Assembly (NCBI GenBank): GCA_016783905.1
Contig: JADHVQ010000004.1
Coordinates: 1 to 57,418 of the forward strand
From: Bacteroidales bacterium
GTDB lineage: Bacteria > Bacteroidota > Bacteroidia > Bacteroidales > FEN-979
Direction: 5' to 3'
DNA: 57,418 bases
Positions 4,252-35,211 of this stretch are shown here, piece after piece (positions within the stretch are counted from its first letter, which is position 1; each line of letters starts with the position of its first letter). Under the pieces are notes generated by a model that had not been told where the DNA came from, ran no database searches, and saw only the letters and a program-made list of their open reading frames with translations. Both the position numbers and the translations under genes were made by a program.

Positions 4252-4291
4252 TACGAGATACGAGATACGGGATACGGGATACGGGATACGA
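4250..4291. repeat. Heptamer tandem array (GATACGR)x6 starting in the murD stop codon
   Basis: gatacga gatacga gatacgg gatacgg gatacgg gatacga. Confidence 0.95.
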
Positions 4292-4403
4292 GATAGAGGC
4301 TGCGCCTGATAGAGCTTCACTGATGGAGCCTTCGGCTGATAAAAGGCCTGCGGTCTTGATAGAACTGACAAAAATAATAAATTTGAACCTTGAACCAAAA
4401 ACT

Positions 4404-8956: not shown

Positions 8957-9955
8957 TCAATTGGCGAAAAAAAAGTGTCCAAGAGCGGTGTTCACATAGA
9001 GAGCCAGGAGTAACAACCACAGCAACAATTCAAACCAGAATGGTCTCCGGAGGTGCATGTAAAAGTTGGTGACAAACACTGCCAGGCATATGCTTAACAA
9101 CCCCAGGTGGTATAGGTGGAGGGCGTGGGCATAGAAGATGGTCAGCAGAGACCAGAACAACATCCACAACAGCACCACATTCTTCTTCCTGAGTTCAACC
9201 GTCTTCTCTCCGATATGGCGGAGGGTATCCTGCAATCCCAGTATTGTAAAGAGCCCCAACAGAGAGAATAGGATCCACTCTCTCCATCCCACCTCCGGAA
9301 TGGTCAGAATCACCTGCCCAAAAAAATCAGTATACAGGGCTGGAAGACCGGAAATACGGTCAGTCAGAAAATAGAGCACCACCAGGTAGAGGAATGGGGT
9401 AGCCAAACCGATCAGTGAGCTTACCCACTCCCGCCATTTGAGGGAACGGTATATCAGGAAAAAGATTAGCAGAAAGCCGTAAAACAGCAGCGATGGAAGG
9501 TAGAAGAAAGAGGAGAGTGCCACGAAGAAGCCGGCGGTGTAAACCAGTTCAACCGGTTCCGACTGGTTATAGGCCTCCAGGAGAGCGCGAAGGATGAAAA
9601 GGAGGAAAAAAGTGGTTATGTTCACCGGGGTGAGGGTCAGGTAGGACGGGATAAGACTGATGAAGAGCAGGAAGAGCAGGGCAGCCAGCGAGGTGTTGTG
9701 TGGCACCAGGTCGCGGCGCGAAACGATGTAGTTGAACCATATGGCCTGAAAGATCACCAGCAGAAACCCAACCGCCATGGCTATGTAAGGAAAGCCGGAG
9801 AGCCAGTCGTAGAGTAAGGAATAGAGTGGTACAGGCCCGTCGGGAGGCGGCATCAGCGGCGGATGAATCCCCCCTGCACCCCACAGCAGCAATCCAATCA
9901 CCCCAATGGTGACAAACTGCCCGGGAAAACTCGATCGGAAATAACGAATCAACAT
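8957..9955 (-). CDS. Polytopic membrane protein (DUF6427-like)
   Basis: About 9-10 hydrophobic segments; co-oriented between purD and rnhB. Confidence 0.6.
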
Positions 9956-9969
9956 TCCTTCGTCCCTCG

Positions 9970-11241
9970 TTAAAGGTCAAACCCAATATCAGTCCTGTAA
10001 TACTTCCCCTCAAACCGGATCTTCTCGGCATTTTCGTATGACCGGTTCAGCGCCTCCTCCAGCGACTTCCCGAACGAGGTCACGGCGAGTACCCGCCCGC
10101 CGTTGGTTACGATCCGGCCATCTACGGCTTTCGTCCCGGCATGGAACACGAGACTGCCGGTCACCTGGTCGAGCCCGGTGATCTCTTTCCCCTTCTCGTA
10201 GGAGCCCGGATAGCCTTCCGATACCAACATCACGCTGGCGGTGAAACGCGGGTCAAGATCCATCTCCACCCGGTCGAGGGTACCATCAGCTACGGCCTGG
10301 CAGAGCTCTACGAAATCGGCCTGGATGCGGGGCAGCACCACCTCTGTTTCGGGATCTCCCAGCCGGCAATTGTATTCAATCACGCAGGGAACCCCTTTTA
10401 CGTTCATCAGTCCGAAAAAGATGAATCCTTTGTAAATAATCCCTTCGGCTTGCAATCCATCCAGCGTGGGACAGATCACCTGCCGCTCCACCTGCTCCAG
10501 GAAGTTGCCCCGGGCAAACGGGACCGGGGAGATCGAACCCATGCCGCCGGTGTTGGGACCGGTATCGCCGATGCCGATCTTCTTGTAATCTTTGGCTTCG
10601 GGGAAGATCCGGTAGTGGGTTCCATCGGTGACCACGAATGCCGAGAGTTCAATCCCTTCTAAAAACTCTTCGATCACCACTTTGCTGGAGGCCTCCCCGA
10701 ATTTGGCATCGGAGAGCATGGCGGTAAGTTCTGCCATTGCTTCATCCATCGTTGGACAGATCACTACCCCTTTGCCTGCCGCCAGCCCGTCAGCCTTCAG
10801 CACGTATGGTGGATCCAGAGTTCGTAGAAAAGCGATTCCTTCAGCCAGCGTCTGGATAGTGAAGGTGTGGGAGAAGGCTGTGGGGATGCAGTATTTCCGG
10901 AGGAACGCTTTGGCGAAATCCTTACTTCCCTCCAGCATGGCCGCCTGGCGGGTAGGACCTATCACAGGGATCTTCCGGAGTTCAGGGTTGTCCAGGAAAA
11001 AATCGTGGATTCCGTGTACCAGGGGGTCTTCCGGACCCACGATCACCATCCCGATTTGATGGCTGATACAGGCTTCCCGGATCGCCTGGAAATCGTTGAC
11101 CGCTACCGGGAGGTTGGTGCCGGTGGAGGCAGTACCGGCGTTGCCGGGAGCAATGAAAAGGGAGGTCAACAGGGGGCTCTGCGCCAGCTTCCAGGCAAGG
11201 GCATGCTCGCGCCCCCCCGATCCTAACAGAAGTATGTTCAT
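9970..11241 (-). CDS. purD: Phosphoribosylamine--glycine ligase
   Basis: GSGGREHAL, LEGSKDFAK, KADGLAAGKGV, NTGGMG, EYNCRLGDPE, TNGGRV. Confidence 0.97.
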   Translation of the reverse strand: MNILLLGSGGREHALAWKLAQSPLLTSLFIAPGNAGTASTGTNLPVAVNDFQAIREACISHQIGMVIVGPEDPLVHGIHDFFLDNPELRKIPVIGPTRQAAMLEGSKDFAKAFLRKYCIPTAFSHTFTIQTLAEGIAFLRTLDPPYVLKADGLAAGKGVVICPTMDEAMAELTAMLSDAKFGEASSKVVIEEFLEGIELSAFVVTDGTHYRIFPEAKDYKKIGIGDTGPNTGGMGSISPVPFARGNFLEQVERQVICPTLDGLQAEGIIYKGFIFFGLMNVKGVPCVIEYNCRLGDPETEVVLPRIQADFVELCQAVADGTLDRVEMDLDPRFTASVMLVSEGYPGSYEKGKEITGLDQVTGSLVFHAGTKAVDGRIVTNGGRVLAVTSFGKSLEEALNRSYENAEKIRFEGKYYRTDIGFDL

Positions 11242-11245
11242 GGTT

Positions 11246-12376
11246 TTAGTTGGTTTTCAATGCTTTTTCGATCGACTCCCAGAGGCGGTCGGCGGTCTTC
11301 TGCCAGGTGAAGAAGCCCTCCCGGGCATGACCCCGCTGGATCAGTTCCTCCCGTACGGTTTTGTACTGGTAGGTCTTGTACATAGCCATGGCGATCGATT
11401 CGGGATCGAAGGGGTCGATCAGCAGGGCTCCATCGCCGGCCACCTCAGGCATGGAGGTGACGTTGGAGGTGATCACCGGCGTCCCGCAGCGAAAAGCCTC
11501 AACGATAGGGATGCCAAACCCTTCGAAGTAGGAGACGTAGGTGAGTGCGGTGGCTGCCCCCAGCACATACCGGAGATGCTCATTGCTGAGGCGTCCGGTG
11601 AAAATCACGTCGTTCGAAAAAATCATCCGCTGGAAGGCCGAGTCGATGTCGGGAGTCCACCACTTCCGGGCTCCAACAATCATTAACTGTACATCCGACG
11701 GATTGGTCTTTTTGAAAAGGTCGAATGCCCGGAAGAGGTTAGAGAGGTTCTTCCTTGGATGAAGCGCTCCGATGAATAGAAAGTAAGGCTTCCCATCGGA
11801 GTAAAACTGGCAGGTCATTACCTTCTCCTCTTGGGTCAGCGGTTTGTAAATCTCACTGGCGCCGTCGTACACGATGTCGATCTTGCCGGCGCTCACCTGG
11901 TACTGGGTTACGATATCCTGTCGGGAGTACTCGGAGACCGTAGCGATCCTTACGGCCTTTTGCGCATACCTGGGAAAGTAGTGACGGTAATACCAGCGGG
12001 TGAGAACAGGAAGGTCTTCAGGGTAGTGCTCGAAATTGAGGTCGTGGATCACATTCATCGACCGGCCCTTGTAGCGAAGGGAGAGAAAACCGTCGGGGGA
12101 GAGGAAAAGATCGGGCTTCAGCCGGTTGAGCAGGGAGGGGAGATTGAATTCAAACCAGGCATAATAGAGAACGGGATGACGGGCCGGAGGATACTGGATG
12201 AGCGGGGTGATATTATCTGAAAAGAGGAACTCTTCTGAGAAATTCCGGTCGAAAATGAAGTAAAAGTGGTGTTCGGGGTGCTGGGTCGTGATCCGTTTCA
12301 GCGATTCATAGGTGAACCACCCGATCCCTTCGAGTTTGTCTTTCAACAGCAAACGGGTGTTAACCGCGATATTCAT
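11246..12376 (-). CDS. Glycosyltransferase family 4
   Basis: IHDL, TVSEYS, PRKNL, EGFGIPIVEA, SMPEVAG. Confidence 0.92.
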   Translation of the reverse strand: MNIAVNTRLLLKDKLEGIGWFTYESLKRITTQHPEHHFYFIFDRNFSEEFLFSDNITPLIQYPPARHPVLYYAWFEFNLPSLLNRLKPDLFLSPDGFLSLRYKGRSMNVIHDLNFEHYPEDLPVLTRWYYRHYFPRYAQKAVRIATVSEYSRQDIVTQYQVSAGKIDIVYDGASEIYKPLTQEEKVMTCQFYSDGKPYFLFIGALHPRKNLSNLFRAFDLFKKTNPSDVQLMIVGARKWWTPDIDSAFQRMIFSNDVIFTGRLSNEHLRYVLGAATALTYVSYFEGFGIPIVEAFRCGTPVITSNVTSMPEVAGDGALLIDPFDPESIAMAMYKTYQYKTVREELIQRGHAREGFFTWQKTADRLWESIEKALKTN

Positions 12377-12409
12377 ACCGGGATAATGTTTCCGGGTTCA
12401 GATTATTTA

Positions 12410-12417
12410 TAACTTTG
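12410..12417 (+). promoter_or_regulatory. -7 element TAACTTTG
   Basis: Exact TAnnTTTG upstream of the ATG at 12457. Confidence 0.5.
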
Positions 12418-12456
12418 TAGCAAATATCACACTATTTTTTAGAAGTATAAACCTAC

Positions 12457-13305
12457 ATGAAAAAATATATAAAGTACCTTTTACCAAAATATCAAAAATT
12501 GATTCTTGAATATAAAGTTGATTTTAAGCCTCGGTATGGACATGGATTAAAGCCGCATGATTCATTATATGCAATTATAGATTCAAACCGGAATAATTAT
12601 GAAGAATTTCTGAAAAAAATCTTGTCGTTCCAGGAGGTCTTTCTAACTATTAATGATTCAACAAATGAGAATAACGATACTCTTCCTGCATGGAATAACG
12701 AGTATCTGCCCGGCCTGGATATTGTCTCATTGTATACAATGATACGACTTTATAAACCGGAAACATATATTGAGATCGGATCAGGGAACTCTACTAAAGT
12801 TGCGGCCAAAGCAATTAAAGATGGGAATCTGTCGACAAAGATAATTTCCATTGATCCTTTTCCCAGAGCCTCCATTGATTTTCTGGCTCATGAAGTAATA
12901 AGAAAGCCACTTGAAGATTTATCAGATCTCAGCATGTTTGCTGATCTGAAGCCGAATGATATCCTGTTCATAGATAACTCTCATCGCTGCTTCCCCAATT
13001 CGGATGTGACAGTTACTTTTTTGGATGTGGTTCCATTGTTGCAGAAAGACGTTCTCTTGCATTTTCATGACATCTACCTGCCATACGATTATCCTCAGTT
13101 TATGTGTGATCGCTTTTATTCAGAACAGTATTTACTTGCCACAATGCTTCTATCTAATAGTAAAAAATATGAGCCTCTTCTCCCTAATTTCTTTATTAGC
13201 GAAGATCCTTTTCTCACAAAAATATTGAATGATTTCTGGGAAAATCCGGAAATGCCCATAGTGGAAAGGCATGGAGGATCCTTCTGGATTAGGGTTAGCG
13301 ACTAA
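12457..13305 (+). CDS. Class I SAM-dependent methyltransferase (Methyltransf_24-like)
   Basis: IEIGSGNST, SIDP, DILFIDNSH, HFHDIYLP; AT-rich codon usage. Confidence 0.85.
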   Translation: MKKYIKYLLPKYQKLILEYKVDFKPRYGHGLKPHDSLYAIIDSNRNNYEEFLKKILSFQEVFLTINDSTNENNDTLPAWNNEYLPGLDIVSLYTMIRLYKPETYIEIGSGNSTKVAAKAIKDGNLSTKIISIDPFPRASIDFLAHEVIRKPLEDLSDLSMFADLKPNDILFIDNSHRCFPNSDVTVTFLDVVPLLQKDVLLHFHDIYLPYDYPQFMCDRFYSEQYLLATMLLSNSKKYEPLLPNFFISEDPFLTKILNDFWENPEMPIVERHGGSFWIRVSD

Positions 13306-14777
13306 ATCTCCTTTTTGATAATTGCTAACATAGATTTCAGACTGATCAGTTTTAGCCCGAATGCCATGAGGAGTGAAAGTAACCCTACAATGATCAGTTT
13401 CCCGATCCATGCTGAATGATCATCAAAACCTGGAATCAGAAGGGTAATTCTGTGTGAGAAATAGTTCAATACCAATACCGTTGCGGCGAAAAGGAAAAGT
13501 GTCAACAAATATCTCACATCGATTCTTAGTTTGAATATCCGCTGAACCAGAATAACCTGTGCGATGGCTGCAAAACCTTGAGTTGAAAGACTTGCGATTG
13601 CTGAACCCATCGCCAGGAACTCTGGTACTAGCAGCAGGTTTACTGTAACGTTGATAACCACACTTATTGATGCGATGATATTCAGTTGTTTAAGATTTCC
13701 ATTCGCCGTCAACAAGGTCCCAAAAATATAACTTGTTGATACCCCAACAAACCCAATCATCAGAAACCTAAAGACTGATGTTGATTCACTGATATGTGCA
13801 TCGTAAAGCAGCTCCATTATCTCACGTGCATAAAAGATTGAACTTGATACAATAATAATAGCGAATGTGATTATCAGAGTAAATGAAAGTTTTAACATCT
13901 CACTAATGGATTCATTCTTCTTAATCATCTTCGAGAAGATAGGGATAAGAAGGACAGCGAATAGGAATGCGATCATACTTGCTGCATCTAGTAATCGAAA
14001 TCCTAATGCAAAGATCCCAGCTTCATCATTACCAACAGGATCATCCAGGATGGCCCCTAAAAGCACTGGATCAAGTCGTGTGTAACATGCCATCAATAAA
14101 ACCAAAAGTGCAAACGGATAACTTCGTTTCAGGATCATCAGGAAAAAAGGCCAGTTCCATTTCAAAGAGCGAAACCTGGCTTTAATGACCACAATTGCAA
14201 ATGCAGTGGCTACCGTGATCAAATAAGCCAGTGTCTGGCTGTAGACAAACCATTCGATTTTAAATTCTCCCTCTGTGACATGTCCCCAAAGCAGAATTCC
14301 GCAGAATAATATCATCAGGAATCGGTCAAGTACCGATAGAATGCTATCCGTTTTGAAGTATAAAAGACCTGAAATATTGGATCTTAGATATAGAAGAAGT
14401 GAGAGCAGAAATTGATTGAAGCCAAGGATTGCCAGTATTTTGAACTGTAATTCATTATATCCGACAAGTATAGCAACTAGAAAGATTACAAAGAAATAGA
14501 AAAATCCCAGGAGAATTTTTATTACAAGAATCCCTGAGAAATGTTTGTTAAGTAACTGGTTGCTTTGAGCAATATTCCGGTTATTGAAATTTGTGATCCC
14601 AAGGTCAAGTAAAATGTTGAATATGATGGTGAAATTGAAAATAACAAAATAAAAACCATATTCTCCAACGCCAACAGTATTTTGCACAGTCCGGTCAATT
14701 CCGAAAATCCAGATTGGCTTTATGAGGAAATTTAGAAAAAGAAGAAATCCCAGATTGATAAGAAATTTTCGCTGCAT
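13302..14777 (-). CDS. wzx: Oligosaccharide flippase (Wzx/MOP family)
   Basis: About 13 TM segments; YGFYF...ILLDLGI, RLD, AGIF..GFRLLDA motifs. Confidence 0.85.
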   Translation of the reverse strand: MQRKFLINLGFLLFLNFLIKPIWIFGIDRTVQNTVGVGEYGFYFVIFNFTIIFNILLDLGITNFNNRNIAQSNQLLNKHFSGILVIKILLGFFYFFVIFLVAILVGYNELQFKILAILGFNQFLLSLLLYLRSNISGLLYFKTDSILSVLDRFLMILFCGILLWGHVTEGEFKIEWFVYSQTLAYLITVATAFAIVVIKARFRSLKWNWPFFLMILKRSYPFALLVLLMACYTRLDPVLLGAILDDPVGNDEAGIFALGFRLLDAASMIAFLFAVLLIPIFSKMIKKNESISEMLKLSFTLIITFAIIIVSSSIFYAREIMELLYDAHISESTSVFRFLMIGFVGVSTSYIFGTLLTANGNLKQLNIIASISVVINVTVNLLLVPEFLAMGSAIASLSTQGFAAIAQVILVQRIFKLRIDVRYLLTLFLFAATVLVLNYFSHRITLLIPGFDDHSAWIGKLIIVGLLSLLMAFGLKLISLKSMLAIIKKEI

Positions 14778-14906: not shown

Positions 14907-14939
14907 TGTGGGGTATACCGGATTCGAACCAGTGACCTC
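14907..14939 (-). pseudogene. Orphan tRNA 3' half (T-arm plus acceptor 3' strand)
   Basis: Minus strand reads GAGGTC-ACTGG-TTCGAAT-CCGGT-ATACCCC-ACA; no matching GGGGTAT 5' strand or D-arm upstream. Confidence 0.75.
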
Positions 14940-14992
14940 ATGAACTAATGCCTGTCAAAACAAGCTTCGCTTGTTCATTTCGTAAAAATCTT

Positions 14993-16105: not shown

Positions 16106-17068
16106 ATGGAACCCTTTTTCAACAGCAAGAACATCGCTGATATCCTGTTCCGGTGGAAGATCCATCTGGCGGTCATCGTGGCGCTGGCCGTAGTCCTCTC
16201 GGTCATCCTTTCGAGTCCGATAGTGATCACCCCGCTGTATAAATCCTACGCCGTTGCCTACCCCTCCAACGTGGCCCCTTACTCAGATGAGAACGAGACA
16301 GAGCAGATGATTGAGATGCTCAACTCCGGGGATATCCGCGATAGCGTGATTGGGAAGTTTGACCTGGCAGTCCACTGGAAGATCGATTCCAATTACAAAT
16401 ATTTTCTCAGCACCCTTTTCTGGATCTACTCCCAGCGTGTGAAGATCACCAAAACACCTTACGAGGCGGTGAACGTTGAGGTGTGGGATCCCGATCCCCG
16501 CATGGCCTGTGATATGGTCAATGCTATCCTGGATTTCTACAATATTAAAGTGAGGAAGCTTCACAAGGATAAGTTCTACGAGGTAGTGGTCAATTATGAG
16601 ACCATAGTTAACGAAAAGATAATGAAGCTTGACTCATTACGTCAACGGGCAGAGGAGCTGGGAACCAAATATGGGCTGATGGAGTACCAGGCGCAAACCC
16701 GCGAGGTGATGCGGGCCCTGCTGGGCACCGGAAGCCAGTCGGGACGTTACAACGAAGCGCTCAAGTATAAAAAGAACATCGAAGAGAAAGGGGCGGAGAT
16801 GTTGCTGATCCAGGAGATGATGGCAGCCGAAACAGAGGAGTTTGCAATCTTCAAGCTGGACTACGACCGGGCATTGCTCGACTACAACCGTGCTTACACG
16901 CATGTGAATATCCTAACCAATCCGTATGTGTCCGACAAGAAGAGCTACCCCATTCGGTGGCTGATCGTGGTTGGCTCGGTATTGGCGATATCTTTTCTGG
17001 CCCTGATTGTGATAGGGGTGATCGAACGCACCAGGTTTGTCAAGCAGTTTCCCTCGCAACATGCATAG
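16106..17068 (+). CDS. Wzz/PCP family chain-length determinant (copy 2)
   Basis: Same architecture and KKSYPIRW motif; paralog of the upstream gene. Confidence 0.85.
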   Translation: MEPFFNSKNIADILFRWKIHLAVIVALAVVLSVILSSPIVITPLYKSYAVAYPSNVAPYSDENETEQMIEMLNSGDIRDSVIGKFDLAVHWKIDSNYKYFLSTLFWIYSQRVKITKTPYEAVNVEVWDPDPRMACDMVNAILDFYNIKVRKLHKDKFYEVVVNYETIVNEKIMKLDSLRQRAEELGTKYGLMEYQAQTREVMRALLGTGSQSGRYNEALKYKKNIEEKGAEMLLIQEMMAAETEEFAIFKLDYDRALLDYNRAYTHVNILTNPYVSDKKSYPIRWLIVVGSVLAISFLALIVIGVIERTRFVKQFPSQHA

Positions 17069-18536
17069 CCTCTTTACAGGAACGGGGATCTCCGGCTTTC
17101 TGGAGAAGTACAAAGTGGGATGGGTCTACCTTATCAGCCTGGCCTATATCCTCCTCAATGCCTATTTGATCTATAAGGATTTTTATTACTCCCTGGCTAT
17201 TCCTGTGTTGTTGGTGCTTCTCTATTTTTACTTTACACGGCTCGACTGGATCCTCCTGCTGATTGCCTTCACCACTCCCATCGCGGTGAATATGGTGCAA
17301 TACGAGCTGGGAGCCGGGATCTCGATCCCAACCGAACCGCTGCTCTTCGGTGTCTTCCTGATCTTTATCCTGAAGCTCTTTTACAAAAATGATTTCGACC
17401 GGAAGATATGGACCCATCCTGTAAGCATTTTGATCATCATTTCCCTGATCTGGATGTTCATCACCAGCCTTACCAGCCAGATCCCGCTGGTATCGTTCAA
17501 GTACCTGCTGGCCCGGTTATGGTTTGTTATTCCTTTCTATTTCCTGGGCATCCTCCTCTTCCGGAAAACGTCAAACATCCGCCTCTTCATCTGGCTATAT
17601 GCAATTCCGCTGGTTGGAGTGATCATCTACACGACCCTGGTTCACTCTACCTATGGATTTGAAGAGGAGGCAGGGCACTGGGTGATGTACCCCTTTTACA
17701 ATGACCATACGGCCTACGGCGCCATCCTGGCTCTCTTCCTCCCCATCTTTATCGGCTTCTCTTTCAGCAAGGTCTATAGCCGGACCACACGCTTTTTCTC
17801 CTTCCTCATCATGATGATCCTGGTGGTAGCCCTCTTTCTCTCTTTTTGCCGGGCTGCCTGGATCAGCATAGTTGCCACATTGATCATCTACATGATTATC
17901 CTCTTTAAGATCAAGTTCAAGTGGATTGCCGTGATCACAGGATCATTATTTATCTTCTTTTTCATGTTCCAGCAGCAGATCTGGGATGTGCTGGAACGAA
18001 ATAAGCAGGGGACATCGGGGAACTTCATGGAGCATGTCCAGTCGATCTCCAACATCACCACCGACGACTCCAACCTTGAGCGGATCAACCGCTGGCAATC
18101 GGCTTTCCGGATGTTTGATGAGCGACCCGTCTTCGGCTTTGGCCCCGGCACCTATCAGTTTGAATACGCCCCCTACCAGCTTTCTGTTGAAAAGACCCTG
18201 ATCAGCACCAACGCCGGTGACCGGGGCAATGCCCACAGCGAATTCATCGGCCCCCTGTCCGAAGAGGGATTGCCAGGAATGCTGCTGATGGTCTCCCTTG
18301 TGATCATGATCATCGCCTACGGCCTGAAAGTCCACAAACAGGCTAAAACCCCTGAAACGCGCCTGCTCAGCCTCACCTTGCTGCTTGGACTCATCACCTA
18401 CTTCCTCCACGGTACCCTCAACAACTTCCTCGACACCGACAAAGCTTCTATCCCCGTCTGGGCCTTCATCGCTGTGCTCGTCGCCCTCGACATGTACCAG
18501 AACAAGCTAGAGAGCCAGTCTTCAGTTGGCAGTTAG
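17061..18536 (+). CDS. O-antigen ligase family (WaaL/Wzy_C) protein
   Basis: Polytopic membrane protein; SFCRAAW, SNLERINRW, PVFGFGPG, NAHSEF. Confidence 0.85.
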   Translation: MHSLFTGTGISGFLEKYKVGWVYLISLAYILLNAYLIYKDFYYSLAIPVLLVLLYFYFTRLDWILLLIAFTTPIAVNMVQYELGAGISIPTEPLLFGVFLIFILKLFYKNDFDRKIWTHPVSILIIISLIWMFITSLTSQIPLVSFKYLLARLWFVIPFYFLGILLFRKTSNIRLFIWLYAIPLVGVIIYTTLVHSTYGFEEEAGHWVMYPFYNDHTAYGAILALFLPIFIGFSFSKVYSRTTRFFSFLIMMILVVALFLSFCRAAWISIVATLIIYMIILFKIKFKWIAVITGSLFIFFFMFQQQIWDVLERNKQGTSGNFMEHVQSISNITTDDSNLERINRWQSAFRMFDERPVFGFGPGTYQFEYAPYQLSVEKTLISTNAGDRGNAHSEFIGPLSEEGLPGMLLMVSLVIMIIAYGLKVHKQAKTPETRLLSLTLLLGLITYFLHGTLNNFLDTDKASIPVWAFIAVLVALDMYQNKLESQSSVGS

Positions 18537-18602
18537 CAATCATTTTTTACCTCTAAATCCCTGAAGGGGACTTACTCCCCCTTTAGGGGGTTGGGGGGCA
18601 TG
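18522..18602 (+). repeat. Left arm of ~80-bp inverted repeat (CAGTTGG heptamers plus family A palindrome)
   Basis: tcagttggcagttagcaat...ctaaatccctgaaggggacttactccccctttagggggttggggggcatg; matches the reverse complement of 20159-20235. Confidence 0.9.
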
Positions 18603-18670
18603 TTTTTTCCCTCAACTTTTTTCACTAATTTTACCCCCAGCAATATAATTTATAACGATTTACTTTTTTT

Positions 18671-19237
18671 ATGGCAACAACGGCAGACATCCGAAACGGA
18701 CTGGTCATTGATTTCAACAACCACCTCTTTGCGGTCGTGGAGTTTCAGCATGTAAAACCTGGCAAAGGAGCCGCTTTTGTGCGTACCAAACTAAAGAGCC
18801 TGCGTACCGGGCGGGTGATCGCTAACACCTTCAATTCCGGCGAAAAAATCGACATTGCACGCGTGGAACGACGCCCGCATCAATACCTCTTCAAAGATGA
18901 TATAGGTTACCACTTCATGCATTTAGAGACCTTCGAACAGATCGCAATTCCCGAGGAGCTGATCAGCGCACCGCAGTTCCTGAAAGAGGGACAGGAGGTT
19001 GAAATTGTCTTTCATGCCGACACGGAAACGCCACTCAACTGTGATTTGCCTGCATATGTAGAGCTGACCATCACCTATACCGAACCCGGATTCCGTGGAA
19101 ATACCGCTACCAATGCCATGAAAGATGCAACACTGGAGACCAGCGCCGTGGTGAAGGTCCCCCTCTTTATAAACACCGGGGAAACCATCCGCGTCGACAC
19201 CCGCACCGGAGAATACGGCGAACGCGTGAAAGGTTAA
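18671..19237 (+). CDS. efp: Elongation factor P
   Basis: HVKPGKGAAFVR, EPG.RG.T, VPLFI..G..I.VDT..GEY. Confidence 0.98.
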   Translation: MATTADIRNGLVIDFNNHLFAVVEFQHVKPGKGAAFVRTKLKSLRTGRVIANTFNSGEKIDIARVERRPHQYLFKDDIGYHFMHLETFEQIAIPEELISAPQFLKEGQEVEIVFHADTETPLNCDLPAYVELTITYTEPGFRGNTATNAMKDATLETSAVVKVPLFINTGETIRVDTRTGEYGERVKG

Positions 19238-19239
19238 TT

Positions 19240-20157
19240 ATGAAACTCCTTACACCCATTACCGTTCAGGAACTTGCCAGCTCCCTTTGTGCACGGTTTA
19301 TCGGAGATCCGGACCATCTGGTAACCGGAATCAACGAGATTCATATGGTCGAAAAGGGGGATCTGACGTTTGTGGACCACCCCAAATATTACAGCAGGGC
19401 TCTCTCCTCCAAAGCTACCACCATCCTGATCGACAAAGAGGTGGAGTGTCCTGAAGGAAAAGCATTGATCATCTCCGAACGGCCCTTTGATGACTTTGTT
19501 TTCCTGACCATCCGGTTTCGTCCCTTTGAAGCTGCAACATCCATGGTAAGTTCCTCTGCCAACCTTGGTGAAGGCACAGTGATCCAGCCCGGGGCTTTTA
19601 TCGGGAACCACGTCACCATCGGAAAAAACTGCCTGATCCACGCCAATGCAAGCATTTACGATCACACGGTGATTGGCAATCAGGTCATCATCCACTCTGG
19701 TGCTGTGATCGGCGCTGACGCCTGCTATTTCCAGCGTCGCCCGGATGGATGGAAAAAACTGGAGTCATGCGGCAGGGCTGTGCTGGAAGACCACGTCGAA
19801 ATCGGGGCTCTCACCTCCATCGACAGAGGCGTTTCAGGCGACACCGTCATCTCTGCTGGAACAAAGATCGACAACCACGTGCAGATCGGTCACGACACCT
19901 TCGTCGGACGCAACTGCCTGATAGGCGCCCATTGCGCCATCGCCGGCGTCACCCGCATCGAGGATGATGTGGTCCTCTGGGCCCGTGTCTCGGTAAACAA
20001 AGACCTCGTGATCGGCAAAGGAGCCATTGTCTACGCCATGTCTGGCATCGACAAATCTCTCCCCGGCGGCAAGACTTACTGGGGCGTTCCCGCCGAAGAG
20101 GCCAGAAAAAAGTGGAAAGAGCTGGCGAAACTCAAGAGACTGATTAAGGAAGAATAG
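19240..20157 (+). CDS. LpxD-like hexapeptide-repeat acyltransferase (paralog)
   Basis: LpxD N-domain (GDLTFVDHPKY), hexapeptide repeats, IDR, KIDNHVQIGH. Confidence 0.85.
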   Translation: MKLLTPITVQELASSLCARFIGDPDHLVTGINEIHMVEKGDLTFVDHPKYYSRALSSKATTILIDKEVECPEGKALIISERPFDDFVFLTIRFRPFEAATSMVSSSANLGEGTVIQPGAFIGNHVTIGKNCLIHANASIYDHTVIGNQVIIHSGAVIGADACYFQRRPDGWKKLESCGRAVLEDHVEIGALTSIDRGVSGDTVISAGTKIDNHVQIGHDTFVGRNCLIGAHCAIAGVTRIEDDVVLWARVSVNKDLVIGKGAIVYAMSGIDKSLPGGKTYWGVPAEEARKKWKELAKLKRLIKEE

Positions 20158-20158
20158 G

Positions 20159-20235
20159 CATGCCCCCCAACCCCCTAAAGGGGGAGTAAATCCCCTTGAA
20201 GGGGATTTAGGGGCAAATTGCCAACTGCCAACTGA
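20159..20235 (-). repeat. Right arm of ~80-bp inverted repeat
   Basis: catgccccccaaccccctaaagggggagtaa...ggggatttaggggcaaattgccaactgccaactga; the inner 31 nt are the exact reverse complement of 18572-18602. Confidence 0.9.
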
Positions 20236-20237
20236 CT

Positions 20238-20858
20238 TTACTTATATTCCTCAATCCTGATCTCCCTCCTGCAAAATTCGCTCTCCACCTTCTGCATGTT
20301 TGAGCATACGAGGATGGTGCGGCCACAGGTATGGTCAGTGATCAGCTGCAGAAAAAAGTTGATCCCCGACTTGTCGAGGTTGGTAGTGGGTTCGTCGAGG
20401 AGAAGGAGAGGAGTGTCACTCAGAAGGGCACAAACCAGCTTCACGCGTTGCTTCATGCCGGAGGAGTATTTGAGGATCGGCTTGGTTCTTACCTGGGAGA
20501 ATGCGAGGAGGTCGATGATCTTCGGGATGGTGAAGCTGTCAACCAGCGGCTTGAATGAGAAATGAAACTCCAGCATCTCCCGAAGGGTGAACTCTTCAAT
20601 CAGCTCCTGGTAGGGGGCAACCAGTGACAGGTGGCGGAAGATCTCCGTGTCGGGGATCCTCTTCCCGTCCAGAATATATTCGATGGTACCTGCCGTAGGG
20701 TGTATATTGCCGGCGATGACCTGCAACAGGGTCGATTTTCCCGATCCGTTCCGGCCTGTAATCACCGTCCGCTCGCCCGCCTCAAACCCGGCGGTGAGGT
20801 TCCGGAAGATCCACTCGGTATTGAATTTCTTGCCAATCCCGTTGAGGGTGATCGTCAT
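20238..20858 (-). CDS. ABC transporter ATP-binding protein
   Basis: Walker A GRNGSGKST, signature YSSGMKQR, Walker B LLLLDEP. Confidence 0.92.
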   Translation of the reverse strand: MTITLNGIGKKFNTEWIFRNLTAGFEAGERTVITGRNGSGKSTLLQVIAGNIHPTAGTIEYILDGKRIPDTEIFRHLSLVAPYQELIEEFTLREMLEFHFSFKPLVDSFTIPKIIDLLAFSQVRTKPILKYSSGMKQRVKLVCALLSDTPLLLLDEPTTNLDKSGINFFLQLITDHTCGRTILVCSNMQKVESEFCRREIRIEEYK

Positions 20859-20870
20859 GCCGGAGGGATT

Positions 20871-21665
20871 TTATTTTTCGCGGTTGTTTTTCCCGAATCC
20901 TTTCATGATGCCACGACTGGAGTTGGCGATGAAGCTGAGGATCTCATCCCGCTCAGGGGTAGCGGGCACATTGGCTTCGATGATCTCCACCGCCCGGGAG
21001 ACGTTATACCCACGCAGGTAGATGGATCTGTAGATATCCTGGATGTGGTTGATCTGTTCGGATGTAAAGCCACGACGACGCAGTCCGATCGAATTCACTC
21101 CTACATAGGAGATCGGTTCCCGGGCTGCTTTGGTATAAGGCGGAACATCTTTCCTGACCAGGGAGCCACCGGAGATCATGGTATGTACACCTATATGCGA
21201 AAATTGATGCACGGCTGCCATCCCGCCGATGATCGCCCAGTCGTCGATCTCAATATGGCCGGCCAGGTTGGTGGCGTTCCCCAGCACCACGTTCTTCCCA
21301 ATGATGCAGTCGTGAGCGATGTGGACGTATGCCATCAGCAGGGTGTTGTCCCCGATCACGGTTTCGAAGTTGGCTTTGGTGCCCCGGTTTATAGTCACGT
21401 ATTCGCGGATCGTGACGTTATCGCCAATCTTGACGATTGTCTCCTCGCCGGCGAATTTCAGGTCCTGAGGGATCGCAGAGATCACCGCGCCCGGAAAGAT
21501 CCGGCAGTTTTTACCAATCCGGGCTCCCTCCATGATGGTAACGTTGGATCCGATCCAGGTTCCTTCCTCGATCACCACATTTTTATCAATCGTAACAAAG
21601 GGTTCAATCACCACGTTCGGGGCCAGTTTAGCCTGCGGGTGTACGTATGCTAAAGGTTGATTCAT
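20871..21665 (-). CDS. lpxA: UDP-GlcNAc O-acyltransferase
   Basis: PQDLKF, IREYVTINRGT, HIAHDC, HQF, DVPPY. Confidence 0.97.
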   Translation of the reverse strand: MNQPLAYVHPQAKLAPNVVIEPFVTIDKNVVIEEGTWIGSNVTIMEGARIGKNCRIFPGAVISAIPQDLKFAGEETIVKIGDNVTIREYVTINRGTKANFETVIGDNTLLMAYVHIAHDCIIGKNVVLGNATNLAGHIEIDDWAIIGGMAAVHQFSHIGVHTMISGGSLVRKDVPPYTKAAREPISYVGVNSIGLRRRGFTSEQINHIQDIYRSIYLRGYNVSRAVEIIEANVPATPERDEILSFIANSSRGIMKGFGKNNREK

Positions 21666-21671
21666 CAGTTG

Positions 21672-23063
21672 TTATTTACGTTGGATCTGTGCCATCATCT
21701 CTGCCTCCATCACTATTTTCTGACCAACATAAGCCACGCCTTTCATGGAGATCAAACCCCGGCGTATGGGTGCATTGAGTTGGTTGTAAAAAATGACGGT
21801 GTCGCCAGGTACTACTTTGTGCCTGAATTTTACATTTTCGATTTTAAGGAAGAGCGTGGTATAGTTTTGCGGGTCATCCACAGTTTTTAAAGCCAGGATG
21901 CCTCCGGTCTGTGCCATTGCCTCGATCTGGATCACGCCCGGCATCATGGGATTCCCAGGGAAATGCCCGGCAAAGAACGACTCGTTCATCGTCACATTCT
22001 TCATGCCAACCACATAGTCGTTACCCATCTCCAGAATCCGGTCGATGAACAGGAAGGGAGGCCTGTGAGGAAGGATCTGCTGGATCTGGTTGATGTCGTA
22101 TAGTGGTGTCTTATTCAGGTCAAAGGTTTGGATCGTGTCTGTTTTGTGCGATTTCCGGATCAGGTCTTTAAACAGCCTGGCAAACTGGATATTGGAAAGA
22201 TGTCCGGGCCGTGTAGCAATGATGTGTGCTTTGATCGGCATCCCAACCAAGGCCAGGTCCCCGATGATATCCAGCAGCTTGTGCCGTGCCGGCTCGTTGG
22301 GGTAGAGGAGTTCCAGGTTGTTGAGGATCCCTTCTCGCAGTACCTCCACCCGTGGCTTGTTGAAGACCTTGGCCAGATGATCCAGCTCATCCTGGGAGAT
22401 GAGCCTGTCAACAAATACGATGGCATTGGTCATATCTCCTCCCTTGATCAGGTTGTTGTTGAGAAGGTACTCCAGCTCATGGAGGAAAACAAAGGTACGG
22501 CAGGGAGCGATCTCAGTCCGGAACTGTTTGATATCGCTCAGGATAGCGTTCTGGGTGGTGAGGATCTTTGAATCGTAGTCGATCATCACGGAGATCTTGA
22601 ACTCTTTCGATGGGATGGCGAGAATCTCTACTTTTTTTTCAGGATCGGTGTAAGAGAGGTTCGACTTCAGCTCGATGTACCTCTTGAGAGCCCGTTGCTC
22701 TATGATACCGGCTTTCAACAGCTTCTCCACGTAAAGCCTGGCACTCCCATCGAGGATCGGGGGCTCCGACTGGTTGAGCTCCACCAGTGCATTGTCAATC
22801 TCGAGACCGGCCAGCGATGCCAGTACATGCTCTACCGTATCGATACGTACCCCGTCCTGTTCCAGGCTCGTTCCACGGGAGGTATCGATGACGTTGTCCA
22901 GGTCGGCATCCACCAGGACTCCGGAGCTCAGATCGGTTCGGGCAAACTTGTAGCCGTAATTTTCCGGTGCTGGTTTGAAAGTCAGTGTTACCTTCTTCCC
23001 GGCATGCAGTCCCACTCCCACAATACTGACGGACTGCTTTATGGTTTTTTGTTTTTCACTCAT
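21672..23063 (-). CDS. lpxC: Bifunctional LpxC/FabZ
   Basis: GVGLHAG, TVEHVLA, EPPILDGS, RHKLLDIIGD; then LPHRPPFL, HFPGNPMMPGV. Confidence 0.97.
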   Translation of the reverse strand: MSEKQKTIKQSVSIVGVGLHAGKKVTLTFKPAPENYGYKFARTDLSSGVLVDADLDNVIDTSRGTSLEQDGVRIDTVEHVLASLAGLEIDNALVELNQSEPPILDGSARLYVEKLLKAGIIEQRALKRYIELKSNLSYTDPEKKVEILAIPSKEFKISVMIDYDSKILTTQNAILSDIKQFRTEIAPCRTFVFLHELEYLLNNNLIKGGDMTNAIVFVDRLISQDELDHLAKVFNKPRVEVLREGILNNLELLYPNEPARHKLLDIIGDLALVGMPIKAHIIATRPGHLSNIQFARLFKDLIRKSHKTDTIQTFDLNKTPLYDINQIQQILPHRPPFLFIDRILEMGNDYVVGMKNVTMNESFFAGHFPGNPMMPGVIQIEAMAQTGGILALKTVDDPQNYTTLFLKIENVKFRHKVVPGDTVIFYNQLNAPIRRGLISMKGVAYVGQKIVMEAEMMAQIQRK

Positions 23064-24102
23064 CTGGCGTCAACTTTTTAACCTGTTTCTCCAATGTATT
23101 CAGTTTTTTGACGATATCATCAAGATTTCTCCAGTGTACGTAGTTCTTCAGGGCACGGGAGACCTCGATTGCGGGAGCGCCGAAGTAGATCGCGCCCTCC
23201 TGGGTGAGGCTGTTCTCCACTCCTGAGCGGGCGCCGATCTTCACATTGTCGGCAACCATGATATGCCCCACTAAACCAACCTGGCCTCCAACCATGCAGT
23301 TCTTTCCGAATTTGACCGAACCCGATAACCCACTCTGAGCGGCAATCACCGTATTCTCTCCGATCTCCACATTGTGGGCAATCTGGATCAGATTATCAAG
23401 CTTTACCCCCTGGCGCAGGATGGTCGACCCGATGGTGGCGCGGTCGATGGTGGTGTTGGCTCCTATCTCCACATTGTCTTCCAGGATCACATTCCCTACC
23501 TGGGGTACTTTCCGGTAATTCTTGTCGTCCTGCGGTACAAAGCCGAAACCGTCACTGCCGATTACGGCACCTCCGTGGATGGTGCAGTTGTTCCCTATCA
23601 GGCAGTCGTGATAGATCCGGACACCCGGGTAAAGGATTGTTCCGTTGCCAACCTGCACGTTGTCACCAATGTATACCTGAGGATAGATCTGTACCCGGTC
23701 GCCGATCTTCACCTCTTCACCAATATAGGCAAAGGCCCCGATGTAGAGGTCGCTACCCAGTTTCGCGGAAGGAGAGACAACCGACTGCGGGGAGATCCCC
23801 GACTTCTTCGCTGTCATGCCGGCATGGATCTCCAGTATTTTGGCAAATGCATCATAGGGATCATCTACGCGGATCAGTGTCAACTCTTCAGGCAGAGGTT
23901 TGTCGGGTTTAAAACTTGTCTTAACGATAGCCAGGGAAGCTCCGGTCTTATATATGTATTGCGTATAAGCAGGATTGGCCAGGAAGGTGAGGGTGCCGGG
24001 AATTCCCTCCTCGATCTTCGACAGGCTCGAAACCATCACCTCCGGATTTCCATCAATAGCGCCTCCCAGCAATTCGGCAATCTGTCGGGCAGAAAATTCC
24101 AT
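23056..24102 (-). CDS. lpxD: UDP-3-O-acylglucosamine N-acyltransferase
   Basis: LTFLANP.Y, GSDGFGF, IDRAT, KLDNLIQIAHNV. Confidence 0.97.
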   Translation of the reverse strand: MEFSARQIAELLGGAIDGNPEVMVSSLSKIEEGIPGTLTFLANPAYTQYIYKTGASLAIVKTSFKPDKPLPEELTLIRVDDPYDAFAKILEIHAGMTAKKSGISPQSVVSPSAKLGSDLYIGAFAYIGEEVKIGDRVQIYPQVYIGDNVQVGNGTILYPGVRIYHDCLIGNNCTIHGGAVIGSDGFGFVPQDDKNYRKVPQVGNVILEDNVEIGANTTIDRATIGSTILRQGVKLDNLIQIAHNVEIGENTVIAAQSGLSGSVKFGKNCMVGGQVGLVGHIMVADNVKIGARSGVENSLTQEGAIYFGAPAIEVSRALKNYVHWRNLDDIVKKLNTLEKQVKKLTPDE

Positions 24103-24194
24103 TTAACTTGATTTAGAGGTTCTTACTTTAAGAAAAAGTGTCGCAAGATACCAAATATTTAGACATCTCGTGGATTTTTTTTACAACCTGGTTG

Positions 24195-25430
24195 CTATCT
24201 TGGCATTAGCTCTTTGGGATAGGAAAGGAGATACTTTTGTGTACGGGTGGAGAGAATCGAGATGTTAAGCTGCTCCGAAGCTTCGGATACATCAAGCAGC
24301 TCTCCTTCGCGGGTCCGGATATTGATCCGGTCGTGGTCAGGATTATAGGCATTGTTGGAAACCGCTTCTTCCGTGACGATATACTCCGTCTCCTCTTCCG
24401 TGATGCCGAAGGTGCGGGCAGCAGCCTCCCTGATGCTGGCCACATAAACTGGATCGAAGGGCTTGTTCCGGAGTTCGGCGCGGAAAAGATGCCGGTTTAC
24501 CAGACGGTGGGAGAGGAAGGATAAAATGGAATCGGGGTGTGCACTCCATACTTTCAGTGCCGCAAAAATATCGAAATCATCAAGTTGTGAGAACGTCTCC
24601 AGGCACTCCTCCCGGCAGAGCATCTCTCTCCCCTTCACCGGATCCTGCAGGAAGCGTTTCAGTGGAGGGGTGGCAAAGAGTTCCACACCCTGCTCTCCCA
24701 GGATCTTGGAACGACGAAGAATGTTGGAAAGCATGACGTCTGCAGCCAGCACGGTCTTATGAAGGTAGACCTGCCAGTACATCAGCCGGCGGGCAAGGAT
24801 GAATTTCTCAATGGAGTAGATCCCCTTCTCCTCTACTACCAGCTCATCATCCACTACCGTCAGCATGTTGATGATCCGGTCGGTGTTGATCACCCCTTCA
24901 GCCACACCGGTAAAGAAGCTGTCACGCGACAGGTAGTCGAGCCGGTCCATGTCGAGCTGGCTCGCAACCAGCTGGTGCAGGAACTGCTTGGGATAGGTGT
25001 CGGTGAAAATGCGGATAGCTACATCCAACGCCCCGTTGAACTGGTTATTCAGCCGTTCCATGAAAAGCAGGGAGATCTCTTCGTGGGTAATACCGGTGAC
25101 GATCGAACGTTCCAGCGTATGGGAGTAAGGTCCGTGCCCGATGTCGTGCAACAGGATTGCCAGCCAGGCTCCCTGTTCCTCCCCGCGGGTGATCTCCACC
25201 CCTTTCCCACGCAGGAGAATAATCGCCTGCTTCATCAGGAAGAGGCATCCAAGCGCATGCTGAAAACGGGTATGGGTAGCCGATGGGTATACGTACTCAG
25301 TTAGCCCGAGCTGCCGGATCCGGCGGAGACGCTGAAACCAGGGGTGCTCCATCACATCAAAGAGGAATTCATCGGGAATAGTGATGAATCCGTAGATGGG
25401 ATCGTTGATGTTTTTCTTTTTGTTGATGAT
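24195..25430 (-). CDS. HD-domain phosphohydrolase (start codon uncertain)
   Basis: FQRLRRIRQLG, HTRFQHALG, LHDIGHGPYSH, DMDRLDYL.RD. The frame extends upstream of 25355 through NKKKNINDPIYGFI to an in-frame TAA at 25461-25463. Confidence 0.9.
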   Translation of the reverse strand: MINKKKNINDPIYGFITIPDEFLFDVMEHPWFQRLRRIRQLGLTEYVYPSATHTRFQHALGCLFLMKQAIILLRGKGVEITRGEEQGAWLAILLHDIGHGPYSHTLERSIVTGITHEEISLLFMERLNNQFNGALDVAIRIFTDTYPKQFLHQLVASQLDMDRLDYLSRDSFFTGVAEGVINTDRIINMLTVVDDELVVEEKGIYSIEKFILARRLMYWQVYLHKTVLAADVMLSNILRRSKILGEQGVELFATPPLKRFLQDPVKGREMLCREECLETFSQLDDFDIFAALKVWSAHPDSILSFLSHRLVNRHLFRAELRNKPFDPVYVASIREAAARTFGITEEETEYIVTEEAVSNNAYNPDHDRINIRTREGELLDVSEASEQLNISILSTRTQKYLLSYPKELMPR

Positions 25431-25525: not shown

Positions 25526-27079
25526 ATGGAGAAGATAACAATATTGTGGGTGGATGATGAAATTGATTTGTTGAAGCCTCACCTCCTCTTCCTTAACGAG
25601 AAGGGATATACTGTGCATACCGCCAATAACGGGCATGATGCGCTGGAACTGCTGGATAACCATAATTTCGATATCATCTTCCTCGACGAGCAGATGCCGG
25701 GCATGTCGGGGATCGAAACACTGGAGAAGATTAAAAACCGGACAACAAACCTCCCGGTGGTGATGATCACCAAGAGCGAGGAGGAGTCGATCATGGAAGA
25801 GGCGATCGGCAGCAATATCGCTGACTACCTCATCAAACCGGTCAATCCCAACCAGATCCTTCTCTCTCTGAAGAAGAACCTGGAGAATAAGAAAATCGTC
25901 AGCGAAAAGACCAGCTTCCAGTACCAGCAGGAGTTTCGTAACATCGGGATGGAGATAAGCAACCGGTTGAATTTCGAAGAGTGGAGCGATATCTACCGGA
26001 AAATCACGGGCTGGGAATTAAAACTGGAACGGTCGCAGGACGAGGGGATGAACCAGGTCCTGCAGATGCAGAAGACGGAGGCCAACCAGGTTTTCTGCAA
26101 GTTTGTTGAGCGGAACTACCTCGACTGGGTTCACGGAAAAGGTCAGGACCGGCCTGTTCAGTCACATACCCTCATCAAGGATTGCATCTTTCCCCTGCTC
26201 CAGGATAACCGTCCCACCTTTGTGATCCTGATCGACAACCTCCGGTGGGATCAGTGGAAGGTGTTGCAACCTGTCATAGAAGAGGGTTTCCGGGTGGAAA
26301 AAGAGGATATCTACTACAGCATTCTCCCTTCCACCACGCAGTACGCCCGCAATTCGCTCTTTTCAGGCCTGCTGCCAACCGAGATCGAGAAAAAATACCC
26401 CAAATACTGGGTTAATGAAGATGAGGAGGGAACCAAGAACAACTACGAAGCGGAGCTGTTGGGTGAGCTCCTGAAGCGCTATGGACGCGATATCAAATAC
26501 TCCTACTATAAAGTGCTGAACATGACCTACGGAAAGAAGCTGGTCGAACTGATGCCCAACCTGATGGTCAACAAGCTTAACTTCATCGTCTACAACTTCG
26601 TGGATATGCTCTCGCACGCCCGAACCGAGATGGAGATCATCCGGGAACTAGCCAGCGACGACGGCGCCTACCGTTCTCTCACCCTTTCGTGGTTCAATCA
26701 CAGTCCACTGCTGGAGATCATCCGGTACGTGGCAGAAAAGGAGGTGAACCTGGTCATCACCACCGATCATGGCTCCATCCGTGTCAACAACCCGGTGAAG
26801 ATCCTGGGCGACCGCAACACCAACACCAACCTGCGCTATAAGACCGGTAAGGCGCTGAAATACGAACGCAATGAAGTGTTCGAAATACGTAATCCTGCTG
26901 ACGCTTACCTGCCCCGGGTCAACGTGAGCTCCACTTTTGCCTTCTGCCGCAACTACGACTTCTTTGCCTATCCCAATAACTACAACTACTACGTAAACTA
27001 CTACAAAGACACCTTCCAGCATGGAGGCATCTCGATGGAGGAGATATTGGTGCCGTTTGTGATATTACGAAACAAGTAA
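25526..27079 (+). CDS. porX: Response regulator with PglZ/alkaline-phosphatase domain (T9SS regulator PorX)
   Basis: Receiver domain (WVDDE, FLDEQMPG, ITKSEEE, IKPVNP) plus LPSTTQYARN, TTDHG, FQHGGISMEE. Confidence 0.92.
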   Translation: MEKITILWVDDEIDLLKPHLLFLNEKGYTVHTANNGHDALELLDNHNFDIIFLDEQMPGMSGIETLEKIKNRTTNLPVVMITKSEEESIMEEAIGSNIADYLIKPVNPNQILLSLKKNLENKKIVSEKTSFQYQQEFRNIGMEISNRLNFEEWSDIYRKITGWELKLERSQDEGMNQVLQMQKTEANQVFCKFVERNYLDWVHGKGQDRPVQSHTLIKDCIFPLLQDNRPTFVILIDNLRWDQWKVLQPVIEEGFRVEKEDIYYSILPSTTQYARNSLFSGLLPTEIEKKYPKYWVNEDEEGTKNNYEAELLGELLKRYGRDIKYSYYKVLNMTYGKKLVELMPNLMVNKLNFIVYNFVDMLSHARTEMEIIRELASDDGAYRSLTLSWFNHSPLLEIIRYVAEKEVNLVITTDHGSIRVNNPVKILGDRNTNTNLRYKTGKALKYERNEVFEIRNPADAYLPRVNVSSTFAFCRNYDFFAYPNNYNYYVNYYKDTFQHGGISMEEILVPFVILRNK

Positions 27080-35169: not shown

Positions 35170-35211
35170 ACGAATTACGAATGACGAATGACGAATGACG
35201 AATGACGAATG
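35170..35211. repeat. Heptamer array (ACGAATG)x5 plus one variant, supplying the next start codon
   Basis: acgaatt then acgaatg x5; the last ATG is at 35209. Confidence 0.95.

Follow-up and report, generated by a model that had tools for sequence, protein, structure and literature searches.

The gene for elongation factor P (efp) and that for a second LpxD-like acyltransferase (lpxD2) form a cassette in an uncultured Bacteroidales genome (G000) that probably represents an inherited, derived inversion. Within the window, by which we mean the entire 57,418-nt stretch analysed here (contig C78 of that genome), the cassette (18603-20158, comprising 68 nt upstream of efp, efp, and lpxD2) lies between two inverted repeat arms (18522-18602 and 20159-20235), each of which joins CAGTTGG-type heptamers to a double hairpin resembling repetitive extragenic palindromic (REP) elements. 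The same reading holds that these arms are composites of genome-wide repeats, as opposed to parts of a dedicated switch. A first-pass annotation of the window had already described end-to-end inverted arms around precisely efp, its upstream region, and the lpxD paralog, and had considered the cassette flipped relative to the lpx operon; the arms and the flip stand, while the adjoining gene has to be corrected, because an ABC-transporter ATPase gene (20238-20858) is located between the right arm and lpxA.

The flip was confirmed by gene order in relatives. We searched 41 genomes (G000 and 40 relatives) with lpxD2, took 20 regions, and mapped 13 window proteins onto them; the resulting comparison set contained 19 related genomes, 11 colinear and eight flipped. 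The colinear layout consists of a leftward gene for a response-regulator receiver fused to a PglZ domain (RR-PglZ), a rightward series of HD, lpxD, lpxC/fabZ, lpxA, ABC, efp, and lpxD2, and then the leftward genes Wzy, orf320, and orf348. It was found in three genomes of the same genus (G002, G009, and G010) and in eight from other genera or families (G012-G016, G021, G027, and G033), with the protein mapping missing efp and lpxA in G015 and ABC in G033; all 11 compared genomes outside the flipped clade were thus colinear. Exactly efp-lpxD2 is flipped in eight genomes of the genus (G000, G001, and G003-G008), although only the Wzy-efp junction is in view in G005 and G007, where the contig stops 99 and 7 nt past lpxD2, respectively. 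In a wider sample of 80 species-level genome loci, 61 were colinear, six flipped, and 13 too short or divergent to call, and among 80 metagenome loci the corresponding numbers were 52, five, and 23. The single-strand order HD-lpxD-lpxC/fabZ-lpxA-(ABC)-efp-lpxD2, which the first-pass annotation had named as typical of Bacteroidota, is therefore the usual one, and inverting 18603-20158 in the window gives it exactly. Both inversion breakpoints are intergenic.

When 11 locus proteins of the 19 genomes were concatenated for a maximum-likelihood tree, the eight flipped genomes grouped in one clade (SH-like approximate likelihood ratio test [SH-aLRT] support of 99), which requires a single change of orientation. 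As the flipped order is confined to this one clade, the inversion looks old, inherited, and clade-fixed, and not like a misassembly. The latter explanation, by which the 1.6-kb segment between the inverted repeats would have been placed in the wrong orientation, draws on the k=31 Logan contigs of four runs (X1, X2, X7, and X6), all of which break inside the shared 31-mer of the arms and leave the cassette as a separate 1616-nt unitig (18573-20188; in X1, record 1 ends at 18582 and record 7 starts at 20160), so that the short-k graph is ambiguous. We nevertheless consider an artefact very improbable, since (i) the identical stretch is only 31 nt long and the arms differ outside it, which ordinary reads or a larger k should resolve; (ii) ABC directly follows lpxD2 on single contigs in G001, G003 (which has no right arm), G004, and G006, and the order is the same in G008, with a 4.9-kb insert; and (iii) the depth of the cassette equals that of its flanks (26 versus 22.7 and 27.1 in X1).

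The two arms were compared by several means. Whole-genome BLAST aligned 18522-18602 with the reverse complement of 20159-20235 at 84.3% identity over 83 columns, and a repeat search returned three adjacent inverted pairs, namely 18559-18609/20152-20202 (51 nt, 88%), 18522-18540/20217-20235 (19 nt, 95%), and 18546-18561/20202-20217 (16 nt, 88%), which together make up one interrupted repeat. Alignment of the arms with MAFFT requires two indels; their inner 39 nt are 97.4% identical, and the innermost 31 nt (18572-18602 and 20159-20189, as counted on this alignment) are fully identical, as had been noted at first pass. From the outside to the inside, each arm contains CAGTTGG-type heptamers, a short T-rich stretch, and a G/C-rich double palindrome. 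Accordingly arranged, the left arm carries its heptamers at 18522-18540, a T-rich lead-in, and the REP-like double hairpin (profile core 18549-18598), and the right arm carries the REP-like core on the minus strand (20163-20213) followed by the heptamers (20216-20235), thereby occupying the entire lpxD2/ABC spacer. The palindrome CCCCCTTTAGGGGG, which had been pointed out together with the heptamers, is present on both arms; its two occurrences in the window compare with 0.03 expected, and one of 100 shuffles reached two. Further, CAGTTGGCAGTT with at most one mismatch occurs four times in the window versus 0.21 expected, a count reached by none of 100 shuffles. The left arm folds into two adjacent hairpins (z -2.26), and the right arm gives z values of -2.84 on the plus strand and -3.57 on the minus strand. 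A terminator-like stem in the left arm (18579-18598) is followed by the T-run CATGTTTTTT and matched a terminator pattern. An Rfam search of 18300-20500 returned nothing at gathering score (best RF02902, 21.8 versus 39.8 bits).

Both modules of the arms are dispersed over the genome. BLAST of the left arm against the 2.47-Mb genome gives 47 matches; apart from the arm itself, the top-scoring one (99.6 bits) is on contig C53 and outranks the right arm (90.6 bits). Ten copies of the REP-like element align over a core of ~50 nt that comprises two adjacent hairpins, and among these copies, variants in loop length and stem extension preserve the pairing. An nhmmer profile of this core matched 39 places in the genome, 28 of them outside open reading frames (ORFs) of at least 120 aa; the core was present in all 10 further genomes searched from the genus and in none of 14 genomes from the other genera of the family, with weak matches in four of 16 other families of the order. 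We detected no REP-associated tyrosine transposase (RAYT; Y1 transposase, PF01797) in the 89%-complete assembly of G000, while six of 14 control genomes were positive, and by eye the 10 aligned copies show neither a GTAG nor a CGTC tag at their ends. The heptamers are likewise common: CAGTTGG-like double units occur at 85 places (~58 loci), and the genome contains 137 period-7 arrays with at least three exact copies, as compared with 1, 3, 69, and 10 such arrays of periods 5, 6, 8, and 9, respectively. Since both modules are ordinary intergenic elements of G000, the arms are composites and not dedicated switch parts. On the window itself, Tandem Repeats Finder (TRF) gave period 7 in 21 of 51 rows. 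Examples of heptamer or octamer microsatellites are seen at 4250-4295, 31593-31707, and 35170-35212, with many unit types genome-wide, and some period-7 arrays code for ORF ends, such as the SVGS* terminus of the Wzy protein.

We then asked how flanking inverted repeats are distributed among the 42 loci with both junctions. Such repeats fell below an E value of 0.001 in only three loci, namely (i) G000, with a 39-nt high-scoring segment pair (HSP; E 2e-17); (ii) G004, with 19 nt of heptamers (E 9e-6); and (iii) the metagenome locus L054, with a 65-nt HSP of 96.9% identity (E 8e-28) that extends to ~115 nt in the alignment. The next-best match was an 11-nt one in G012 (E 0.001). Among the seven other flipped loci whose two junctions were short enough for comparison, five (G003, G006, L051, L053, and L055) showed no inverted match, and a sixth, G001, showed only a 9-nt match (E 0.1). 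In the sister genome G003, which shares 90% amino-acid identity, the cassette is flipped, the lpxD2/ABC spacer has zero length, and there is no counterpart of the right arm, which is specific to G000. A REP copy beside efp is found also in G008 and L052 and, in degenerate form, in L055, and the colinear G002 has a related copy upstream of efp, so that the left, efp-side copy may be old. A search of the colinear outgroups for an inverted repeat predating the flip found only this one REP-like copy in G002, in the ABC/efp spacer (nhmmer E 7e-8), and spacers of 29 and 48 nt without a repeat in G009 and G010. Around 9700-9850 of the G002 locus (L035), the ABC reading frame seems, by eye, to run into the REP-like copy and so to acquire a repeat-encoded tail.

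Because the flipped sister G003 and other flipped loci lack a two-sided repeat, a causal role of the G000 arms in the original inversion appears not to be supported. The proposal of the first-pass annotation that the inversion was mediated by these repeats thus fails for the original event by that annotation's own refuting condition, namely relatives in this orientation that have no repeats. Within G000, the efp pair ranks third among ~14 close inverted-repeat pairs found by BLAST. The two stronger pairs are colinear in genus relatives, which suggests that inverted repeats at the borders are not by themselves a predictor of inversion in G000, and we rejected the idea that segments flanked in this way generally invert. 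One of these pairs (C122:28576-32167, locus L211) places 148-nt arms around genes for a type IX secretion system (T9SS)-type LTD-domain protein and a phosphoribosyltransferase-like protein, and the other (C86:27602-29307, locus L212) places 113-nt arms around the gene for a T9SS cargo protein. The C86 arms belong to another dispersed repeat of ~100 nt, which matches both strands at the same places and is therefore itself palindromic.

Several observations weigh against the reading that we prefer. L054 is colinear, yet it is the sister of the flipped G001 (support 100) deep inside the flipped clade, and the tree with metagenome loci added needs two orientation changes. Since separate trees of the left flank, the right flank, and the cassette all place L054 inside the flipped clade (support of 99, 95, and 80, respectively), its placement speaks for a genuine re-inversion over a replaced segment, and by these trees the efp-lpxD2 cassette has been inverted at least twice within the genus. 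Moreover, this sole re-flipped lineage has the longest flanking inverted repeat of all, which favours a link between repeats and inversion. That repeat is unrelated to the G000 arms and consists of other heptamers and AT-rich sequence. The locus is thus inversion-prone, with repeats and inversion associated. In addition, only two of the 39 REP cores, those of the arms, have a CAGTTGG array no more than 100 nt away, the two combinations being in mirror order, and the terminator role that we assign to the arms is a prediction only. On the other side, orientation otherwise tracks phylogeny: the enlarged tree contains 13 flipped rows, which represent 10 distinct lineages (L051, L052, and L053 differ little or not at all from G006, G008, and G005, respectively, and were not counted separately), and one reversal.

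The association can be read either way, in that border repeats promote inversion or that an inversion or conversion process creates the repeats. In the latter case, the repeats would be the product and not the cause: a duplicative inversion (template switching or snap-back at hairpin repeats) or a gene conversion between spacers would have copied part of the efp-side spacer, inverted, into the lpxD2-side spacer, which is compatible with an orientation that is fixed today. We regard this as possible but doubtful. It agrees with the finding that in both G000 (80 nt) and L054 (97 nt) the lpxD2-side spacer consists entirely of sequence copied, inverted, from part of the efp-side spacer, with the L054 copy replacing the 3' end of the Wzy ORF and a third, partial copy between efp and lpxD2; with the retention in the sister G001 of orthologous heptamers only on the lpxD2/ABC side, as judged by eye; and with the restriction of the array-plus-core combination to the two arms, from which copying between the two junctions is suggested to be more likely than two independent assemblies. 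It is at odds with the REP cores, within which the two arms are not mutual closest relatives; with the lack of a net orientation change between G000 and G003, which would require two events or pure conversion; and with the fact that no intermediate was seen.

In L054 itself, a composite repeat of AATGAGG heptamers and AT-rich sequence is present three times within 2882-5018, in the successive spacers ABC-efp, efp-lpxD2, and lpxD2-Wzy. The efp-lpxD2 spacer, which holds the partial copy, measures 246 nt between ORFs versus 2 nt in the window, and the copy between lpxD2 and Wzy, which is the inverted one, was read by eye as replacing the end of the Wzy frame.

The region upstream of efp travels with the cassette. 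In an alignment of 14 efp upstream regions, ~80 nt stay conserved in colinear and flipped loci alike; this stretch contains a TAnnTTTG-like box (here TAATTTTA), which may correspond to the Bacteroidota -7 promoter consensus, and a scan for sigma-70-type promoters marked 18621-18649. As this block is kept whichever way the cassette points, the cassette would bring its own predicted promoter region along.

This bears on a further alternative, in which the cassette is a reversible, repeat-mediated switch: the arms would recombine at a measurable rate through RecA or an unlinked recombinase, cells would carry either orientation, and efp-lpxD2 would be coupled to read-through from the lpx operon or from the Wzy operon. 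Such a switch would fit the end-to-end inverted arms with their identical 31-nt core, the at least two changes of orientation in the genus, the lineage-specific flanking inverted repeats of G000, L054, and, weakly, G004, and the four tyrosine recombinases (PF00589) encoded elsewhere in the genome, on contigs C85, C40, C36, and C73. We judge it unlikely, for the following reasons. None of the tyrosine recombinases is encoded on C78, and serine recombinases (PF00239) gave no match anywhere in the 89%-complete genome, so that neither model identifies a linked invertase and the earlier statement that the window contains no recombinase gene holds for both families. Orientation follows phylogeny, with one reversal against 10 flipped lineages, and most flipped relatives do not have flanking inverted repeats. 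With its conserved promoter region retained in both states, efp would gain little regulation that is evident from inverting. The inverted repeats do bound the segment as in an inverton, but they are ordinary members of dispersed families (39 REP-like matches and 85 CAGTTGG-like sites) and not specific to a switch, the right arm being absent from G003, and the stronger repeat-flanked segments on C122 and C86 are inverted in no genus relative. The k=31 contigs bear on the switch in neither direction: no joints were listed, and the contigs end in the shared core, so that the cassette is not phased. In X2 and X7, 16 letters separate two core matches, which we read as tandem REP copies elsewhere and not as a junction. 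If orientations were found to mix in reads, the cassette would be a rare whole-gene invertible segment without a linked invertase.

Under the inherited inversion that we favour, a ~1.56-kb cassette with its promoter region would have been cut, in the ancestor of the clade, from the conserved series at two intergenic points and flipped, leaving efp behind the Wzy gene and lpxD2 converging on ABC. No site-specific recombinase would have been involved; homologous or replication-based recombination is the presumed mechanism. The right arm would have arisen, or been copied in, only in the G000 lineage and after the inversion. Today, the arms may act mainly as hairpin terminators or insulators that separate Wzy from efp and the convergent lpxD2 from ABC, while their identical 31-nt stretch could serve as a substrate for rare recombination of the RecA type. 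We infer that the orientation is fixed in the present population. A bolder scenario, to which we give as little credence as to the switch, would make the cassette a recombinase-independent, gene-scale flip-flop, in which hairpin repeats at the borders repeatedly trigger duplicative inversion and each flip primes the next. Every such event would then add another inverted repeat peculiar to its lineage (as in G000 and L054). In present populations, the opposite orientation would be found in a minority of cells, and EF-P together with a lipid A-type acyltransferase would shift between lipid A and O-antigen (Wzy) read-through.

The genes of the locus, taken from the ORF listing and from Pfam and NCBIfam matches, are ordered as Wzy-like (+), arm, efp and lpxD2 (+), arm, ABC (-), and the lpx series (-). 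The first is a Wzy/O-antigen-ligase-like membrane protein gene (17037-18536, +; Pfam Wzy_C, 79.4 bits), the C-terminal SVGS* of which, as read by eye, derives from the outermost CAGTTGG units in the left arm (18522-18602, +; delimited by repeat search, alignment, profile, and BLAST). The efp upstream region (18603-18670, +) leads into efp (18671-19237, +), whose product contains the three EF-P domains of Pfam (EFP_N, EFP, and Elong-fact-P_C) and scores 236.6 bits with TIGR00038 (cut-off 185.8), as expected of an EF-P. The next gene, lpxD2 (19240-20157, +; 305 aa), encodes a protein with the Pfam LpxD N-terminal domain and Hexapep repeats that is 32% identical to the canonical LpxD of the window (23056-24102). 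It falls below the equivalog cut-off of TIGR01853 (235.3 versus 242.5 bits; canonical LpxD, 361.7 bits) and passes the subfamily model NF002060 (257.4 bits versus a cut-off of 207), and we therefore classify it as a paralog of LpxD and a putative acyltransferase.

Beyond the right arm (20159-20235, -; delimited by repeat search, alignment, profile, TRF, and BLAST), the ABC-transporter ATPase gene (20238-20858, -; 206 aa; Pfam ABC_tran, 91.2 bits) has no NCBIfam model above cut-off; it is the last of the lpx-side series and convergent with lpxD2. The lpx series proper (20871-25355, all on the minus strand and assigned by Pfam) comprises lpxA (20871-21665), the lpxC/fabZ fusion (21672-23063), lpxD (23056-24102), and the HD-domain gene (24195-25355). 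The RR-PglZ gene (25526-27079, Pfam), divergent from the HD-lpx series, keeps its position in all 17 loci with that side in view and is presumably similar to PorX-type regulators of type IX secretion. GC skew gave no replication-direction signal able to explain selection on efp orientation. At the lpxD2/ABC junction of G008 (locus L033), the 4.9-kb insert spans 9590-14516 and carries genes for an AraC-type regulator, a Fic-domain protein, and a PemK/MazF-type toxin, with a tyrosine recombinase fragment (the C-terminal 93 aa) adjoining ABC; in G008, this breakpoint is thus also an insertion site for mobile DNA.

Elsewhere in the window, a Wzx-like flippase gene (13302-14777, -; weak NCBIfam WzxE match) lies on the strand opposite to that of its counterpart in every relative. 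Its product is only 55-67% identical to those of relatives, while the products of neighbouring genes are 82-95% identical to those in flipped-clade genomes, and the GC content falls to 0.44-0.47 over 9-18 kb of the window. A spacer at ~14910-14945 resembles, by eye only, the 3' portion of a minus-strand tRNA; ARAGORN calls no tRNA there or in the rest of the window. The segment 12457-15022 looks like a replaced or rearranged part of a polysaccharide locus.

Among known systems, the REP-like element compares with REP elements, bacterial interspersed mosaic elements (BIMEs), and REPIN-RAYT systems, as these are described in PMC3733652, PMC3116915, and PMC2817692: it is a short extragenic palindrome, present in tens of copies, lineage-specific, hairpin-forming, and mostly intergenic. 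The same sources also set it apart, since one end of REP elements is marked by a GTAG or CGTC tag (PMC3733652) and their copy number is given as "more than 100" (PMC2817692), whereas the G000 element has 39 profile matches, no such tag, and no RAYT detected in the 89%-complete genome, and it differs from a REP doublet in consisting of two unlike hairpins within ~50 nt. The genus thus has a specific REP-like double-hairpin element with no RAYT detected, and G000 is, in addition, unusually rich in period-7 microsatellites. The short tandemly repeated repetitive (STRR) sequences of cyanobacteria are heptanucleotide repeats. Like these, the G000 arrays are tandem heptamers of several unit types concentrated in intergenic spacers; unlike these, they belong to another phylum and have other units, and some of them run into ORF ends (Wzy SVGS*). 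A search of the literature for short tandemly repeated heptanucleotides gave nothing relevant among 10 listed papers of 530.

At the level of the cassette, micro-inversions through inverted dispersed repeats (IS, rrn, and REP) are known to leave segments in opposite orientations among related genomes. The efp-lpxD2 locus shares with them inverted copies that bound the segment, both orientations in relatives, and no dedicated recombinase; it differs in that the segment measures only ~1.6 kb and contains two housekeeping genes, and in that the present arms postdate the first flip, the two flips being accompanied by unrelated arms. The invertons of Bacteroidales, as recovered by read mapping of the PhaseFinder type, combine inverted repeats that are short and unique with a cognate invertase of the serine or tyrosine type, and their orientations are mixed within a population. 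Our locus resembles them in having inverted repeats that flank invertible DNA, the inversion of which would alter the transcriptional context. It is unlike them in its arms, which are ~80 nt long, belong to dispersed families, and have no invertase nearby, and in its clade-fixed orientation, with whole genes inverted together with their own promoter. A 1.6-kb housekeeping cassette has been reoriented at least twice in one uncultured Bacteroidales genus, with its predicted promoter kept each time. The case separates two look-alikes, namely a gene cassette that happens to lie between inverted repeats and a programmable switch.

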